DNA from: an uncultured Thermoprotei archaeon
GTDB lineage: Archaea > Thermoproteota > Thermoprotei > Thermofilales > B15-G2
Length of the DNA: 64,000 nt
Direction: 5' to 3'
Assembly: GCA_965367815.1 (NCBI GenBank)
Contig: CBDUKN010000011.1
Span: forward strand, 2,361 to 66,360
The notes under the pieces are model-generated. The model did not search any database. It was not told the DNA's origin and saw nothing but the letters and a program-made list of their open reading frames with translations. The position numbers and the translations under genes are program-made. Positions 1,815-16,337 of this stretch are shown here, in pieces (positions within the stretch are counted from its first letter, which is position 1; each line of letters begins with the position of its first letter).

Positions 1815-2342
1815 ATGATTAGAGTAATTGCTGTCGGAGACTTTCATGTTCCGTGGAGAGCACAGAGTGTTCCTGGCAGAGTTTTATCTTTTTTAGCCGA
1901 ATTTGCTCCTGACTTAATTTTGTGTACAGGTGACTTGGGGTGCAGAGAGGTTTTAGATCTGCTTTGGAAGCTTGCTCCTGTCGTCTGTGTGAGAGGAGAA
2001 GTAGACTGGCTTGATTTGCCTTCTCTAGAACGCGTAGAAGTTCTTGGAGTTAGGTTTCTATTAGTGCATAGCGTAAGGGATGCTTGTTTGCCGAGGAAAG
2101 ACGTAGATGTAATTTTGTTCGGACATACACACGTACCTTATGTTCGGACTACTGTTGTAGAGAATAAGCCCGTTCTTTTGCTAAATCCTGGTTCTGCTAC
2201 TGGAGCTGTTCCTGGATCTGCTCCTTCTCTTACAGTCCTGTCTGTGGAAAGAGAAGTCGTGGAAATTGAGCTATATGAGTTTTTGTTAGAGAGCTCTGCA
2301 AGAGTTTTAAGGCGCTGCTACTTGAAGGAGACTTCTTGGTAA
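1815..2342 (+). CDS. YfcE/Vps29-like metallophosphoesterase
   Basis: GDFH, TGDL, RGEVD, FGHTH, LNPGS calcineurin-like motifs; probable start ATG 1815 (track starts at 1779). Confidence 0.88.
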   Translation: MIRVIAVGDFHVPWRAQSVPGRVLSFLAEFAPDLILCTGDLGCREVLDLLWKLAPVVCVRGEVDWLDLPSLERVEVLGVRFLLVHSVRDACLPRKDVDVILFGHTHVPYVRTTVVENKPVLLLNPGSATGAVPGSAPSLTVLSVEREVVEIELYEFLLESSARVLRRCYLKETSW

Positions 2343-2695
2343 ATCGCATCTATTATTGTCTCTTTGCCGCAGACAGGACATTTTCCTTCTTTTTTGTGCA
2401 CGTAGTCTCCTTTCTTGAACTCTCTCCTCTTTTCGTATCCGCAGGCGTAGCACTTGACTACGGTATATATGTGGAATACAGGGACTTTGATTTTTAGAGA
2501 CCTGTAGAGGGAGTATATGGCGAAGAAGGCCATGGCTCCGGAAATTGCCAGAAACGTGAGCCCTATTTTCTGCCCTAGCTGTTTTTCGCTGAGAGTGCTG
2601 AAGGCGAGAGCTATCATTGCTATGGAGAAAAGGAGAAGTAGTGTTGAGATGAATATTCGCTGCTGTTTAAGCTTTTTAAGTTCCTCTGAAGACAC
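2318..2695 (-). CDS. Conserved membrane protein with two TM helices and a C-terminal zinc ribbon
   Basis: Two hydrophobic segments followed by CYAC...CPVC. Confidence 0.75.
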   Translation of the reverse strand: MSSEELKKLKQQRIFISTLLLLFSIAMIALAFSTLSEKQLGQKIGLTFLAISGAMAFFAIYSLYRSLKIKVPVFHIYTVVKCYACGYEKRREFKKGDYVHKKEGKCPVCGKETIIDAIYQEVSFK

Positions 2696-2738
2696 ATGTG
2701 AGATAAAAGGTATGTGTTTATTTATTTTCCCTCGCTAG

Positions 2739-3857
2739 CTAGGGAAGTACCCCCACGGTATTTCCGACTCCTATTAACAGTACTGTGCTTCCGGCGCTAC
2801 ATCTCTCTAGCACTATGTGCTTTACTCTGTCTACTGCCCGCTTTACTCCCTGGAGAATGTCCTTTGTCATTACCGAGAGGGCTTCCGCACTCGACATTTT
2901 TATGAGAATTGAATATATAGGAAGATTGGAGCGGGCCGCTATTTTCTCTATGTTAAACTTCTCGATTCCTAAGCCGCCGATAGCCACTCCTACTCCCTCG
3001 ACTACTGTTCCAGATTTTTCTCCCTCGAATTTTGCTGCAGCGTCAACGAATATCAGAAGAGATACTTTGCCGTATTTAGCGATGACGTTTTCGACAGCAT
3101 CGTCAAGCCTGCCTGTTGAGCTCATAGGCCCTTTGGCTTTAATCACTAAAACTTTTCTTCCATTAAGTGTTGTCTCTATAAGGAGTGTTTCTTTAGCTAT
3201 TTCTATAGGAGGACTCATTGTATCAGCTAGCATGGCGAACTTTGCTGCCACGAGCGGGCCTACGCTGTCTCCTATGGGTATGTTATTGTTTAAGGCTTTT
3301 AGTCCACTTTCTAGCGCCTTTATTTCTTCATGAATAAACGGAAGTTGTGACTGTAGCTGCAGGAGTAGCCAGAGGCTCTTGAACCTCTTTCCTAGCCTAT
3401 AGTAGTGGTCTATATACTTGTAGATGTATCTTAAAGTATGTGCTGCACTCACTAGACTTTTAAGTCTTTCTACATCTACCAAATCGGCCTTTGGGACTAA
3501 GCGGAGAACTTCGGATGTCATGTTTTCGTCTGCGACGAGAACTATGTGCTTAAGCTTATCTACTACACCGTAGGGGTCTCGGCTCTCAGGCTCAATTATA
3601 ACTGACTCTATAAGCTCCTTGACTCTGTCTTCGAGAGCCTTTATGTCGACTGTACTTCCGCTTTTGGCAGCTACTTCCTTGAATGCGTTTACTGCTGTAA
3701 GTATTGCTTTATCAGAAACTTTTTTCAAGATTCCTAGGTACATTTCTATTTCCTTTATTATCTTCCATATTTCCAGCTCTCTACTCAGGTAGGCGAAGAG
3801 CATCACTGCTATTATCCATGCAAACCACTCTTGAAACATGTCTGCGCCGCTTGACAT
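2739..3857 (-). CDS. DUF1512 family protein
   Basis: N-terminal TM; PIGDSVGPLVA, IFVDAAAKFEGEKSGTVVEGVGVAIGG, LIGVGNTVGV motifs. Confidence 0.8.
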   Translation of the reverse strand: MSSGADMFQEWFAWIIAVMLFAYLSRELEIWKIIKEIEMYLGILKKVSDKAILTAVNAFKEVAAKSGSTVDIKALEDRVKELIESVIIEPESRDPYGVVDKLKHIVLVADENMTSEVLRLVPKADLVDVERLKSLVSAAHTLRYIYKYIDHYYRLGKRFKSLWLLLQLQSQLPFIHEEIKALESGLKALNNNIPIGDSVGPLVAAKFAMLADTMSPPIEIAKETLLIETTLNGRKVLVIKAKGPMSSTGRLDDAVENVIAKYGKVSLLIFVDAAAKFEGEKSGTVVEGVGVAIGGLGIEKFNIEKIAARSNLPIYSILIKMSSAEALSVMTKDILQGVKRAVDRVKHIVLERCSAGSTVLLIGVGNTVGVLP

Positions 3858-10695: not shown

Positions 10696-11556
10696 ATGTT
10701 AACGTATATTTTTAGACCGCAAACCAATAACCTAATTTTAGATGGCGAAACGCTAATATCAATTATCTACAATAGACCTGAAAAGATTTCATGTAATTTA
10801 GGTCTCAATTCATGTAAAGTAGAATACTCAAACAGTACAGCAACTTTAGGCAAATATAAAATAGATTTAAATTATTTAAAATCCATTAGAATAGACAAAA
10901 GTTGTGTTTACGCAGTTTCCCCTTCAGGAGAGCTAATTAAGCTAGCGTTTTTTTCAGGGCAACATTTCTATAAGTTACGTGCTATTTCACCACAGACTGC
11001 TCCTACAGTAGAGATAGATGGCATACACATGCATCGAGTAAAGGATACTACTCCTTGGAAAGACTCGTACTTGAAAATAAAATTTCTCAAAATTAGGCCA
11101 GGAGCAGTAGTTCTAGACATATGTACAGGACTAGGCTATACCGCTATTCACTCACTAATGCGAGGCGCTAAAGAAGTAATTTCAATTGAAAAAGACGAGA
11201 ACATATTGAAGCTAGCTGAACTAAATCCGTGGTCCTGGAAACTATCAGACCATAGAATAACAATTCTCCTGGGAGACGCCTCTGAAGTAGTCGAATACTT
11301 AAGGCCCTTCTCCTTCAACTACATAGTACATGACCCTCCAAGAATCAGCCTCGCAGGAGAACTATATAGCCTTGAATTCTACAAAAAACTATACACGCTT
11401 CTAAAACCTAAAGGAAAACTATTCCACTACACTGGCCAGCCTTTTGAAAAAATAGGCTATAAAATAATCAAAGGTATTCTCAACAGGTTAAGAGCTGCAG
11501 GATTTAGAAGAGCAGCATACATTAGCGAAATTACTGGGATAATAGCCTCAAAATAG
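10696..11556 (+). CDS. Archaeal class I SAM-dependent methyltransferase (COG2521-like)
   Basis: PTVEIDGIHMHR, LDICTGLGYTA, HDPPRISLAGELYS. Confidence 0.85.
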   Translation: MLTYIFRPQTNNLILDGETLISIIYNRPEKISCNLGLNSCKVEYSNSTATLGKYKIDLNYLKSIRIDKSCVYAVSPSGELIKLAFFSGQHFYKLRAISPQTAPTVEIDGIHMHRVKDTTPWKDSYLKIKFLKIRPGAVVLDICTGLGYTAIHSLMRGAKEVISIEKDENILKLAELNPWSWKLSDHRITILLGDASEVVEYLRPFSFNYIVHDPPRISLAGELYSLEFYKKLYTLLKPKGKLFHYTGQPFEKIGYKIIKGILNRLRAAGFRRAAYISEITGIIASK

Positions 11557-13266: not shown

Positions 13267-13920
13267 ATGAATTTAATTTTAAGAGCAATCGAAGAAAAAA
13301 TAGCTGAAAAAAAGGTCAAAGGAGGCCTTGCATACGTGAAACTCAAAGACTCACCCCTCGACGAGGTATTTATAAGATCACAGCCAATATCATTTTCATT
13401 CGACGTAAAGCAGTCCTTCTTAGGTGTAGTGCGCATAGTTCCCTCAGTAAAAAGCGAAGAAGATGCAAATCTGTATAGATCTCTCAAAGGTCTCGAATGC
13501 TACTTAAAGTATAGTGGACTCTTTAGGCGTAACGCGTTCTTCAATTCACGCGAAGAACTCAACACTCTAAAGGAAATGGTCCCCTCCATGGTTATAAGCG
13601 ATAACCTAATTACTAGACTGAACAATGACCCTGAACTCAAAAAACTTATAATGGATATCAAACCTTCAGAACTCACAATACTTCTTAAATCCGTTCACGA
13701 AGAACTACTCCCCTTTGTGACCTCAAAGGAGTATCTACTAAGAGCAGAAGCAAAATTCTATGAAAATCCGACAGAAGTAACTTGGTACATAACACTAACA
13801 CACATGCTAATAAGAGGACCTAAATTCACTAAAAATGTCAGAGGGATATTTGAAATAATGGAAATTATAGGAAAACATCTACGGGAGGTATCTAAGAAAA
13901 CTAATAGTATTTCCGCGTAA
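13267..13920 (+). CDS. Hypothetical protein
   Basis: Long ORF; probable start ATG 13267 (track starts at 13210). Confidence 0.7.
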   Translation: MNLILRAIEEKIAEKKVKGGLAYVKLKDSPLDEVFIRSQPISFSFDVKQSFLGVVRIVPSVKSEEDANLYRSLKGLECYLKYSGLFRRNAFFNSREELNTLKEMVPSMVISDNLITRLNNDPELKKLIMDIKPSELTILLKSVHEELLPFVTSKEYLLRAEAKFYENPTEVTWYITLTHMLIRGPKFTKNVRGIFEIMEIIGKHLREVSKKTNSISA

Positions 13921-14317
13921 GAAAACGCTTCGCATATTCGAAGAGAAGAATACGGCTCCATCCCATATTTTCTAGCCTAATAGACATTCTCTTAAGAATA
14001 CCTGGCACATACGACACAAGAGTCACATATTTTACTCTCCACGGAGCTTTAAGACTCATATACATTATACAAACCAAATACTGTCTCCTCTTACGCCCAA
14101 CAACCATAATATACTCTTTTCTCCTACCTATGTCATCCGACCTACTTTTAATATACCTCTCTATTTCAGCAACAGCGTTCAATGCAACTCTAATTAAATT
14201 GCTTTTTCTTCTAACAACAGTATTTAAACCAATTGACTGCAGTTCTAACAGTACTACACTGTGATCTTTATCTACCTCAAATACAGCAACGCCCTTGACT
14301 CTAATTCCTCGTCTCAC
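13901..14317 (-). CDS. Hypothetical protein (138 aa)
   Basis: ORF with SD-like GAGGTGA upstream of its GTG start. Confidence 0.7.
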   Translation of the reverse strand: MRRGIRVKGVAVFEVDKDHSVVLLELQSIGLNTVVRRKSNLIRVALNAVAEIERYIKSRSDDIGRRKEYIMVVGRKRRQYLVCIMYMSLKAPWRVKYVTLVSYVPGILKRMSIRLENMGWSRILLFEYAKRFLTRKYY

Positions 14318-14387: not shown

Positions 14388-14443
14388 TAGTCAGCGTGAG
14401 ATGGTTCAATCACAGCTCATCTCTTCCCCATCTTCATCACGAC
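14388..14443 (-). ncRNA. C/D box guide sRNA
   Basis: GTGATGA-AGATGGGGAAGAG-ATGA-GCT-GTGATTGA-ACCATCTCACG-CTGA; same C' variant as the 3947 sRNA. Confidence 0.75.
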
Positions 14444-14488
14444 AATACAATTCACTTTCCTATCCCCCATTAATATCTTTAGCCTCTG

Positions 14489-14544
14489 AGCTCAACATGG
14501 CCTCTTTCATCACGAATCAGAACCCGTGTTCCCTATCATCGCCT
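14489..14544 (-). ncRNA. Probable C/D box guide sRNA
   Basis: GCGATGA-TAGGGAACACGGGTT-CTGA-TTC-GTGATGA-AAGAGGCCATG-TTGA; C and D each deviate by one base. Confidence 0.55.
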
Positions 14545-14593
14545 ATTCATTTCTGGACTTCTATTAAAATAAATCTATTCCTCTGTCCCACAC

Positions 14594-14614
14594 ACCCCTT
14601 TATTTCCACTGGAA
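14594..14614 (-). promoter_or_regulatory. Origin recognition box ORB1
   Basis: Minus strand TTCCAGTGGAAATAAAGGGGT matches the archaeal ORB consensus including the G-string. Confidence 0.9.
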
Positions 14615-14760
14615 AAATATTTTTTTTAATTACATTTATTTATTATAAAATAATTATATTCTCCCATTTAAAAGAAAAAACAAAATATAAAAATTTTCAT
14701 ACAAAAGTTTTTGATATAGCGGTCTATTTTGTTTCTCCAAAATTTTTGAATTAGCTTTTT

Positions 14761-14781
14761 CTCCAGTAGAAGCGAAGGGGG
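14761..14781 (+). promoter_or_regulatory. Origin recognition box ORB2
   Basis: CTCCAGTAGAAGCGAAGGGGG, inverted relative to ORB1 and ORB3. Confidence 0.8.
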
Positions 14782-14835
14782 ACTAGGGTTCTTGTGGAGA
14801 AAAAAGCCTAGAGTCTAATATTTAAGTACAAGTTT

Positions 14836-15048
14836 TTGGTGAAAAAGAATATGAGCAGAGATATTCTCGAGCTGGAGAAAACGCTATTATACCAAGTAGA
14901 TCCGAGCGTAAAGCGTTTTCAAGTGATCTTTGCGCTAGCTTTTGTTGGATTTAGGAAGACGTTCGGTAAGGACAGGGATCTCTGTGAGCTATTTCTTAGA
15001 ATAATGGTTGAGGCCAACAAAGGTCGTAACGAGCTTCTTCTTCGCTAA
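14836..15048 (+). CDS. Small hypothetical protein inside the origin region
   Basis: 70-aa ORF with protein-like composition and higher GC than its flanks; TTTAAGTA TATA-like element just upstream. Confidence 0.55.
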   Translation: MVKKNMSRDILELEKTLLYQVDPSVKRFQVIFALAFVGFRKTFGKDRDLCELFLRIMVEANKGRNELLLR

Positions 15049-15050
15049 AT

Positions 15051-15138
15051 TCTACTTGTAGACACTGTATTTTCTACTGTTGATGTCTTTATCTACCGTA
15101 AAATGATGTAGATGTTACTACTGTAGAATTCTTGTAGA
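15051..15138. repeat. Array of short imperfect palindromes TCTAC-N1-2-GTAGA
   Basis: tctacttgtaga 15051, tctactgttga 15073, tctaccgtaaa 15092, actactgtaga 15117, plus tgtaga half-sites at 15107 and 15133. Confidence 0.6.
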
Positions 15139-15158
15139 CCCCTTTGTTTCCACTGGAG
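15138..15158 (-). promoter_or_regulatory. Origin recognition box ORB3
   Basis: Minus strand CTCCAGTGGAAACAAAGGGGT, essentially perfect ORB consensus. Confidence 0.93.
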
Positions 15159-15346
15159 AATTGTTTTAAGCAAAGATTTTATGAAAAGTGAATATATCGT
15201 TGTAGTTTTTTCTCTTTTTATAAATATCAAATGAATTTTTCTTGAATAAGCTGTTTCTACAATTTTAATCCATTTCTTCAAATTATGTTATTTCTCAACT
15301 CTAAGCGCTACCGTTATATATTTTGAAGAAGGGTGTAGAAGTGGAA

Positions 15347-15766
15347 ATGCCTAAGATAAAAATAGAAGATACGCTGCCTTCAGGGGAGAAGATCGTTATT
15401 ACGCTTGAGGGTAGAGAGATTTCTGAGAGGAGGGTACTTCAGGTTCTCGAGCTTCTTAAGATAATGTCTTCTGGAGGCCAGGAGTCTGAGAGCTGTATAA
15501 ATGAAGGATTTTTGAGGTGTAAAGGGGGAAGTAGGGGTCGGCTTAAGGAAGTTATATGGGATGCGATTTTAGAGAACTTTGGTAGCGGTATATGGTTTTC
15601 TTCACGTGATTTGCAGGAGGTTTTGCGTAAGGCTGGAGTGGATGTTTCGTTGAATACTATAGCTACTTATTTACTTCGATTTTATAAGGCGGGGCTTCTT
15701 GATAGAGCTGGAGGAAAATTTGATATGAGGTATAGAGTTAAGACTGTTGAGATTTCTGTTGACTGA
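15347..15766 (+). CDS. Origin-adjacent winged-helix DNA-binding protein
   Basis: N-terminal beta/alpha module, linker, then WFSSRDLQEVL...VSLNTIATYLLRFYKAGLLDRAG...RYRV wHTH; probable start ATG 15347. Confidence 0.75.
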   Translation: MPKIKIEDTLPSGEKIVITLEGREISERRVLQVLELLKIMSSGGQESESCINEGFLRCKGGSRGRLKEVIWDAILENFGSGIWFSSRDLQEVLRKAGVDVSLNTIATYLLRFYKAGLLDRAGGKFDMRYRVKTVEISVD

Positions 15767-16337
15767 TTTTCCGTTCTTCTATCTGGTATGCGATGATATC
15801 GCTTTTTGTTATTATTCCTAAAAGTTTGTCTCCGTCCATTACTAGGACTGCAGGGACTCCTTTTGCGAGTAATTGTGTAACATTATCTACTGTTTCACTG
15901 GGAGGCACAATAGGAAGAACAGGCCCCATTATCTCTTTAACTGGTTTAAATAGAGTGGATTCTTTGTTTGATAATAGCGAATTTATTATATTGTCTTCAA
16001 ATATTGTTCCGATAACTCGCCCGTGTTTGTCCAGTACTGGTATTTGAGAAATTCCATTATCCCACATGATTTTTGCAGCTTTTTTCACGGGATCGTCTTC
16101 GTTTACTGTTATTACGGGAGATTTCATTACATCTCTAGCTTTTGGCAGTTTTTCTAGTGCCTCTTCAAGAACAGCTAAAATTTTCCTTAGTGTCGAAAGA
16201 CGAGGGTCTACAGTTCCTGCCTCTATTCGCGCTATAAGAGATTGACTTACACCAGCACGTCTGGCTACTTCTTTTTGAGTTAGGCCGGCTTTTTTCCTCA
16301 AGGATCTAATATACTGAGGTGTTGGAAGAGAAGACAT
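15738..16337 (-). CDS. XRE HTH + CBS-pair transcriptional regulator (COG3620)
   Basis: LRKKAGLTQKEVARRAGVSQSLIARIEAG plus two CBS repeats. Confidence 0.92.
   Translation of the reverse strand: MSSLPTPQYIRSLRKKAGLTQKEVARRAGVSQSLIARIEAGTVDPRLSTLRKILAVLEEALEKLPKARDVMKSPVITVNEDDPVKKAAKIMWDNGISQIPVLDKHGRVIGTIFEDNIINSLLSNKESTLFKPVKEIMGPVLPIVPPSETVDNVTQLLAKGVPAVLVMDGDKLLGIITKSDIIAYQIEERKISQQKSQQS

Follow-up and report, generated by a model that had tools for sequence, protein, structure and literature searches.

The stretch analysed here, a window of 64,000 nucleotides (C11:2361-66360, on the 78-kb contig C11 of a 2.45-Mb assembly in 37 contigs), carries three ORBs beside which no orc1/cdc6 gene is found, raising the question of whether this cluster is a chromosomal replication origin and, if so, where its initiator would come from. 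A sequence-only reading of the same DNA had proposed an origin served in trans.

Anatomy of the ORB cluster

All three ORBs that the sequence-only reading had placed at 14594-14614 (-), 14761-14781 (+) and 15138-15158 (-) were recovered by a scan with the strict pattern TCCASTRGARN{4,8}GGGG, which matches at 14595-14613 (-), 14762-14781 (+) and 15139-15157 (-) and has no further match in the window, where zero chance matches are expected according to dinucleotide-preserving shuffles. Genome-wide, the strict pattern has four matches, three of them at these ORBs. A looser pattern (the 11-mer with at most two mismatches, then 3-5 nt, then GGGG) likewise has four matches, three of them at these ORBs, compared with two in the reversed genome; ORB-like 21-mers, whose frequency across the genome had been left as a point to check, are therefore rare even with the looser pattern. 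The locus is composed as follows.

14594..14614, minus strand: ORB1, TTCCAGTGGAAATAAAGGGGT on the minus strand, with dyad core and G-string; left edge of the putative unwinding element
14615..14760: putative duplex unwinding element, 146 bp, 15.8% GC, between ORB1 and ORB2
14733-14739 (+), 14795-14801 (-) and 14873-14879 (-): extra TTCTCCA half-sites, forming short inverted repeats with the ORB2 core (I8, I9, I16)
14761..14781, plus strand: ORB2, TCTCCAGTAGAAGCGAAGGGG, with a degenerate dyad, inverted relative to ORB1; right edge of the putative unwinding element
14851..15048, plus strand: gene for a 65-aa protein with no family assigned, between ORB2 and ORB3; genus-specific among the loci examined
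15050..15137: cluster of TCTAC / GTAGA repeats, including ATCTAC-N11-GTAGAT, at the same position as the palindrome of relatives
15138..15158, minus strand: ORB3, TCTCCAGTGGAAACAAAGGGGT on the minus strand, ~190 bp upstream of the winged-helix gene
15159..15346, plus strand: AT-rich spacer, 25.5% GC, probably containing the promoter of the winged-helix gene, with conserved blocks such as TCTCTTTT
15347..15766, plus strand: winged-helix gene, 139 aa, no family assigned, right of ORB3
15738..16337, minus strand: gene for a 199-aa HTH_3 + CBS-pair protein (Pfam), convergent with the winged-helix gene and its conserved partner in the order

As is characteristic of oriC1-type origins, each of the three matches combines the ORB dyad core (TCCAGTGGAAA) with a G-string, the dyad of ORB2 being degenerate (TCCAGTAGAA). 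The window has 18 TTCTCCA copies, five of them within the 428 bp from 14733 to 15160; two of these are inside ORB2 and ORB3, and the three outside the ORBs, at 14733 (+), 14795 (-) and 14873 (-), agree with the extra half-sites previously noticed near ORB2.

The segment between the first two ORBs, which had been described as an AT-rich stretch of 146 bp, has a measured GC content of 15.8%, a value as low as which is reached by 30 of the ~16,740 non-overlapping 146-bp windows of the genome. Across 18 related origins examined, the highest AT content among the three spacers is that of the ORB1-ORB2 interval, and the unwinding element is therefore placed between ORB1 and ORB2, in line with the sequence-only reading. 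The arrangement of ORB1(-) and ORB2(+) around these 146 bp is the inverted pair about an AT-rich element that typifies oriC1-type origins, and ORB(-)/DUE/ORB(+) has been described as the prevailing origin pattern (bioRxiv 10.64898/2026.08.15.744077). Polarity is also of the Sulfolobus type: the G-string of ORB1 faces away from the AT-rich spacer, as does that of the orc1-adjacent ORB(-) in a Sulfolobaceae-like genome (L109), where the inverted pair around the AT-rich element has the same orientation.

With the oriC1 of Sulfolobus/Saccharolobus, which is Orc1-1-dependent and consists of ORB1-3, a DUE and ucm, the window shares the ORB consensus (dyad plus G-string) and the number of three ORBs. 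A clear ucm, the UBP-bound motif of the unwinding element in Sulfolobales/Desulfurococcales, was not found in that of the window; the best candidate, TCATACAAAA at 14696-14705, agrees weakly (8/10) with the Sulfolobus ucm core TTATACAAAC, as given by the oligonucleotides of PMC12141716, and relatives do not conserve it. Instead of the Sulfolobus ucm, the window has TCTAC/GTAGA repeats between ORB2 and ORB3, where relatives have TTATAC/GTATAA.

Left of ORB1, at 14483-14546 on the minus strand, three Rfam C/D-box sRNA families overlap with scores below their gathering thresholds (21-26 bits, E 0.012-0.018), and a 10-nt repeat, TTCATCACGA, occurs at 14433 and 14506, its reverse complement containing the C-box-like GTGATGA. 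A known RNA family was not accepted for this region, the Rfam matches being sub-threshold.

Initiator genes and strand composition

The genome encodes two Orc1/Cdc6 proteins by Pfam Cdc6_C, at ~69.8 kb of C9 and ~69.7 kb of C8, and a phmmer search of all genome ORFs with both proteins found no third copy. Neither the 64-kb window nor the whole 78-kb C11 contains an Orc1/Cdc6 gene according to Pfam Cdc6_C and phmmer, which bears out the absence reported for the window by the sequence-only reading; the orc1 genes that it had left to be located are these two, both on other contigs. The gene on C9 (68882-70099) encodes 405 aa scoring 408 bits against Cdc6-1 of S. solfataricus (2QBY_A) and 373 bits against ORC1 of A. 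pernix (2V1U_A), both being structures crystallised on ORB DNA. These scores clearly mark the protein as a full-length Orc1-1 orthologue, close to that of Sulfolobus, and with it the genome encodes an initiator of the Orc1-1 class expected for an oriC1-type origin. The protein on C8, by its best matches (1FNN and 1W5S), is of the Orc1-2 type.

Whichever way the contigs join, at least ~32 kb separates the ORBs, whose distance to the closer end of C11 is 16.9 kb, from orc1-1, which is 15.0 kb away from the closer end of C9. An adjacent initiator gene, typical of oriC1-type origins without being obligatory, is accordingly missing here. A divergent third Orc1 or hidden initiator in the window was considered and set aside, none being found by Pfam Cdc6_C or phmmer; the flanking ORFs of 488, 236 and 138 aa have no match in Pfam or NCBIfam. 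At its position on C9, the relocated orc1-1 has no ORB within 700 bp upstream; three GC-rich stretches in its upstream region (C9:68330-68760) resemble tRNA genes by eye. On C8, the Orc1-2-type gene is convergent, with a 4-bp overlap, with a gene for a 412-aa AAA+ protein that resembles an RFC large subunit by sequence (595-1833 on the plus and 1830-3068 on the minus strand of locus L002).

In Sulfolobus, orc1-1 is found immediately beside the origin (PMC12141716), whereas the genome studied here has it on another contig. An origin served in trans is nevertheless not new and has already been published for three organisms. In Aeropyrum pernix, according to a review (PMC5333045), neither cdc6 gene adjoins the origins. 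At its oriC1 (Grainge 2006 and Robinson & Bell 2007, as cited there), ORC1/Cdc6-1 binds ORBs that do not adjoin its gene, a separation shared with the window; this oriC1 differs in having four ORBs in another arrangement and in lacking a winged-helix gene of the window's family at the locus (L100). The sole ORB motif of Thermoproteus tenax is far from cdc6 (PMC3189178), and oriC of Hyperthermus butylicus, an ORB(-)/DUE/ORB(+) origin, has no adjoining initiator gene (bioRxiv 10.64898/2026.08.15.744077); both loci share the missing adjacent initiator with the window and belong to different lineages. Combined with the lineage-wide non-adjacency described below, these reports indicate that a trans-served origin is a known situation and the norm for this order.

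Strand composition was cited by the sequence-only reading as flipping across the site, and its G/C counts, 25/46 (11281-11460), 23/45 (13561-13740) and 60/19 (15421-15600), are exact. Raw cumulative GC skew on C11 has its minimum in the bin holding the ORBs. Coding strands in this genome have a mean skew of +0.119, and after correction for coding strand the residual skew is negative in nine of ten genes between 6.5 and 16.7 kb of C11 and positive in almost every gene over more than 20 kb right of the ORBs, giving a V with a depth of 543 at 16.5 kb that ranks second among 27 contigs. The left arm on C11 is only ~11 kb long, the residual being positive again left of ~5.7 kb (~3.3 kb of the window), and contigs C8, C2 and C5 have V-shapes of similar depth; raw skew alone was therefore rejected as proof of an origin.

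For an independent skew test, a 400-kb segment with the ORBs at its centre was taken from each of two complete relatives, G022 (ORB locus at ~866.6 kb) and G020. The 5-kb bin ending at the ORBs contains the raw cumulative minimum of both segments; after coding-strand correction, the curve reaches its global minimum at the ORBs in one relative (198.7 versus 200.8 kb) and a local one in the other. A cumulative skew minimum at the site, another mark of oriC1-type origins, is thus found on C11, with the short left arm and the comparable contigs noted above, and in two complete relatives; the claimed flip stands on these three genomes, but the evidence from C11 by itself is weaker than had been implied. 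Contig C8 has both the deepest V (655, at ~10 kb) and the deepest inverted V (773, at ~28 kb) of the assembly. The skew reversals on C8 and at ~5.7 kb of C11 may mark breakpoints of rearrangements, a terminus or another origin.

Such features leave room for a locus that is a genuine origin by descent and is now weak or dormant, with most replication of the chromosome starting at one or several non-ORB origins elsewhere. Crenarchaea commonly have two to four origins, other contigs have skew V-shapes as deep or deeper (e.g., at ~10 kb of C8), and the short left arm on C11 would fit as well. This reading is nonetheless unlikely: the residual skew of the right arm is coherently positive for more than 20 kb, within the 400 kb of each complete relative no raw minimum is deeper than the one at the ORBs, and the strong conservation of the three ORBs and their spacing argues for continued use.

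Conservation of the locus and loss of orc1-1 linkage

Within the order, the strict ORB pattern occurs in 25 of 41 genomes (the present one included), always at one locus, and a looser scan found ORBs at the orthologous locus in most of the remaining genomes. The order ORB1(-), ORB2(+), ORB3(-), at one ORB locus per genome, is kept in ~40 relatives. Where ORBs and the best Orc1 match are on one contig, as in seven relatives, orc1-1 is 29-102 kb from the ORBs. A phylum sample of 161 genomes contains 44 from outside this order with strict ORB matches; orc1 is within ~2 kb of the ORBs in ~28 of the 44 and not in the rest, which include G229 (1,669,696 bp), where the distance to the best Orc1 match is 112.6 kb. 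The premise of the sequence-only reading, that ORB origins usually adjoin orc1/cdc6, therefore holds for those ~28 of 44 genomes of the phylum but fails in this order, in which non-adjacency is the rule.

Six genomes from five other families (G161, G190, G196, G168, G228 and G218) have orc1-1 directly left of ORB1, followed by ORB(-,+,-) and a winged-helix gene 155-198 bp right of ORB3. Their modules have the same ORB order and polarity, the same distance from ORB3 to the gene and the same winged-helix family as the window, and that of G161 additionally has the HTH+CBS partner, as the window does. The difference is on the left: these genomes keep orc1-1 ~90 bp left of ORB1, where the window has a genus-specific ORF of 138 aa (13901-14317, minus strand). 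On the simplest reading of these gene orders, orc1-1 / ORB(-,+,-) / winged-helix gene would be the ancestral module of the phylum, and only the linkage to orc1-1 would have been lost in the Thermofilum-like order, as also in a small number of further families (G187, G240, G245); the same simplest reading would explain the orphan origin by relocation of orc1-1 out of the ancestral module. The module shared with orc1-linked genomes ties the window's ORB cluster by descent to the classical orc1-linked origins.

The interval between ORB2 and ORB3 is a feature in which the genus of the window departs from its relatives. ORB spacers measure ~70-110 bp in most relatives and the ORB2-ORB3 gap ~80 bp, whereas in this genus the gap is 356 bp and holds the 65-aa gene. 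Between this gene and its same-genus orthologue, 31 codon differences are synonymous and 8 non-synonymous (74.7% nucleotide and 88% amino-acid identity), which shows the gene to be under purifying selection; the protein has no match in Pfam or NCBIfam. Gaps of 600-750 bp were seen in two other families of the class (L045 of G057, L047 of G056 and L044 of G053), where a conserved gap ORF of ~100 aa (MGRR...VVYDF...FYRN...QKSV.EC...) resembles Cas2-like small proteins by eye. Homology of the 65-aa gene to these ~100-aa gap ORFs of families f11 and f12 was not accepted, the alignment being unconvincing.

Right of the 65-aa gene, the stretch from 15045 to 15345 contains nine TCTAC/GTAGA pentamers, the highest count of all 300-bp windows in the genome (mean 1.2). 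Relatives have a palindrome of the TTATAC-N9-GTATAA type between ORB2 and ORB3, with half-sites that vary (TTATAC/GTATAA, TTCTGC/GCAGAA).

A cluster of motifs assembled by chance, or borne by a mobile element, with no role for the chromosome can be given next to no probability. The 356-bp insert with its small gene, which might be raised in its favour, shows only that insertions are tolerated at this place, while the expected number of chance matches is zero and the locus keeps its synteny and single-copy state throughout two orders and in several further families of the phylum, a conservation that effectively refutes such a reading.

The locus is instead quite probably a working oriC1-type chromosomal origin of a heat-loving archaeon of the Thermofilum/Infirmifilum order, at which trans-supplied Orc1-1 would occupy ORB1-3, with MCM loading at the unwinding element between ORB1 and ORB2. 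The unique ORBs, the inverted pair around the AT-rich stretch, the Orc1-1 orthologue on another contig and the skew minima all support the proposal of a trans-served origin with which the analysis began. Binding of Orc1-1, unwinding and firing we infer by analogy with Sulfolobus and Aeropyrum. On this analogy, Orc1-1 encoded on C9 would bind each ORB as a monomer, contacting the dyad core through its winged helix and the G-string through its AAA+/ISM region. ORB1(-) and ORB2(+) would bracket the unwinding element, ATP-bound Orc1-1 would recruit MCM there, and replication would run both ways from it. The trans supply would result from the relocation of orc1-1 in this lineage.

The winged-helix gene beside ORB3

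ORB3 belongs to a second conserved unit, consisting of an ORB(-) ~190 bp before a small winged-helix gene. In ~40 genomes, an ORB(-) of the ORB3 type is found 150-250 bp (mostly 166-197 bp) upstream of a winged-helix orthologue of 125-140 aa. Searched with a profile of the gene (alignment A1), 37 of the order's 41 genomes have one copy each, as have 106 of the 161 Thermoproteota genomes sampled. No match to it was found in the Sulfolobaceae-like family f31, unlike the window, where the gene flanks the origin. The HTH+CBS gene is present at 23 related ORB loci and also at distant loci. A TATA-like TTATATAT at 15314-15321, 33 nt before the ATG, is by its position the probable promoter of the winged-helix gene.

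Named homologues of the winged-helix protein come from Thermofilum, Infirmifilum and Thermoprotei MAGs and are all annotated as hypothetical. The protein itself has no significant match in Pfam or NCBIfam and no sequence match in the PDB; weak matches to WHD_MCM8 (Pfam) occur in 9 of 23 family members, with a best E of 2.8e-5. Its AF2 model has a pLDDT of 81.5, and Foldseek returned only generic winged helices of the Fur/ArsR/MecI type, all with E > 0.001. A remnant of an Orc1 or MCM winged-helix domain was rejected as an identity for the protein, hhalign against the genome's MCM and Orc1-1 giving ~1% probability and a PDB profile search returning nothing. The architecture of the locus is ORB-based and not that of a WhiP/Cdt1-type origin such as Sulfolobus oriC3, with its adjacent whiP and IR/ucm/IR without ORBs; the 139-aa protein has, by predicted fold, a single generic winged helix.

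Two metagenome contigs from a low-GC archaeon (L117/L118, 30% GC) have the order orc1, ORB(-)/ORB(+), top6A, a small ORF, ORB(-), 178 bp and the winged-helix gene, a layout that, read as gene order, shows the third ORB travelling with the winged-helix gene and not with the origin core. In a complete relative of 1,750,259 bp (L057, G012:C1:694500-700500, with the locus at ~695.9 kb), an insert of ~3.1 kb separates ORB3 from the winged-helix gene; the Orc1 gene positions of this genome agree with those for T. adornatum 1910b in bioRxiv 10.1101/2021.04.30.439615.

The fixed distance between ORB3 and the gene means that some ORBs could serve gene regulation instead of initiation. Extended to the whole cluster, the ORBs would mainly be a control region through which Orc1-1 regulates the winged-helix gene and perhaps the 65-aa gene, with Orc1-1 acting as a transcription factor and replication starting elsewhere. 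Across orders, ORB3 stays ~170-200 bp from the winged-helix start codon even where the ORB1/ORB2 pair is 0.4-2.3 kb away, and in L117/L118 the ORB(-) 178 bp before the gene stands alone, with the inverted pair beside orc1 2.3 kb away. This regulation would explain ORB3 at most, and as an account of the whole cluster it is decidedly unlikely, given that ORB1 and ORB2 are inverted in the canonical way about a stretch that is among the most AT-rich of the genome, that the genome has no other ORB cluster and that the skew minima lie at the site in three genomes.

Within the reading of the locus as an Orc1-1-served origin, the conserved unit of ORB3 and the winged-helix gene allows a more tentative and rather unlikely proposal: Orc1-1 bound ~180 bp upstream may control the winged-helix protein, which itself may act at the origin, e.g., on the TCTAC/GTAGA (TTATAC/GTATAA) palindromes, in the manner of UBP at the Sulfolobus ucm. 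Binding of the protein to the TCTAC/GTAGA or palindrome repeats is speculation. According to the UBP paper (PMC12141716), an analogous protein in other lineages is a search target of considerable interest.

These results allow oriC to be annotated with confidence in an uncultured Thermofilum-like lineage and indicate that predictors requiring an adjacent initiator gene would miss or misplace the origin throughout the order. The winged-helix gene is a candidate for a new origin-associated factor or for an Orc1-1-regulated cell-cycle gene and is a lead worth following; if its product does act at the origin, it would be a previously unrecognised origin factor of the Thermoproteota.
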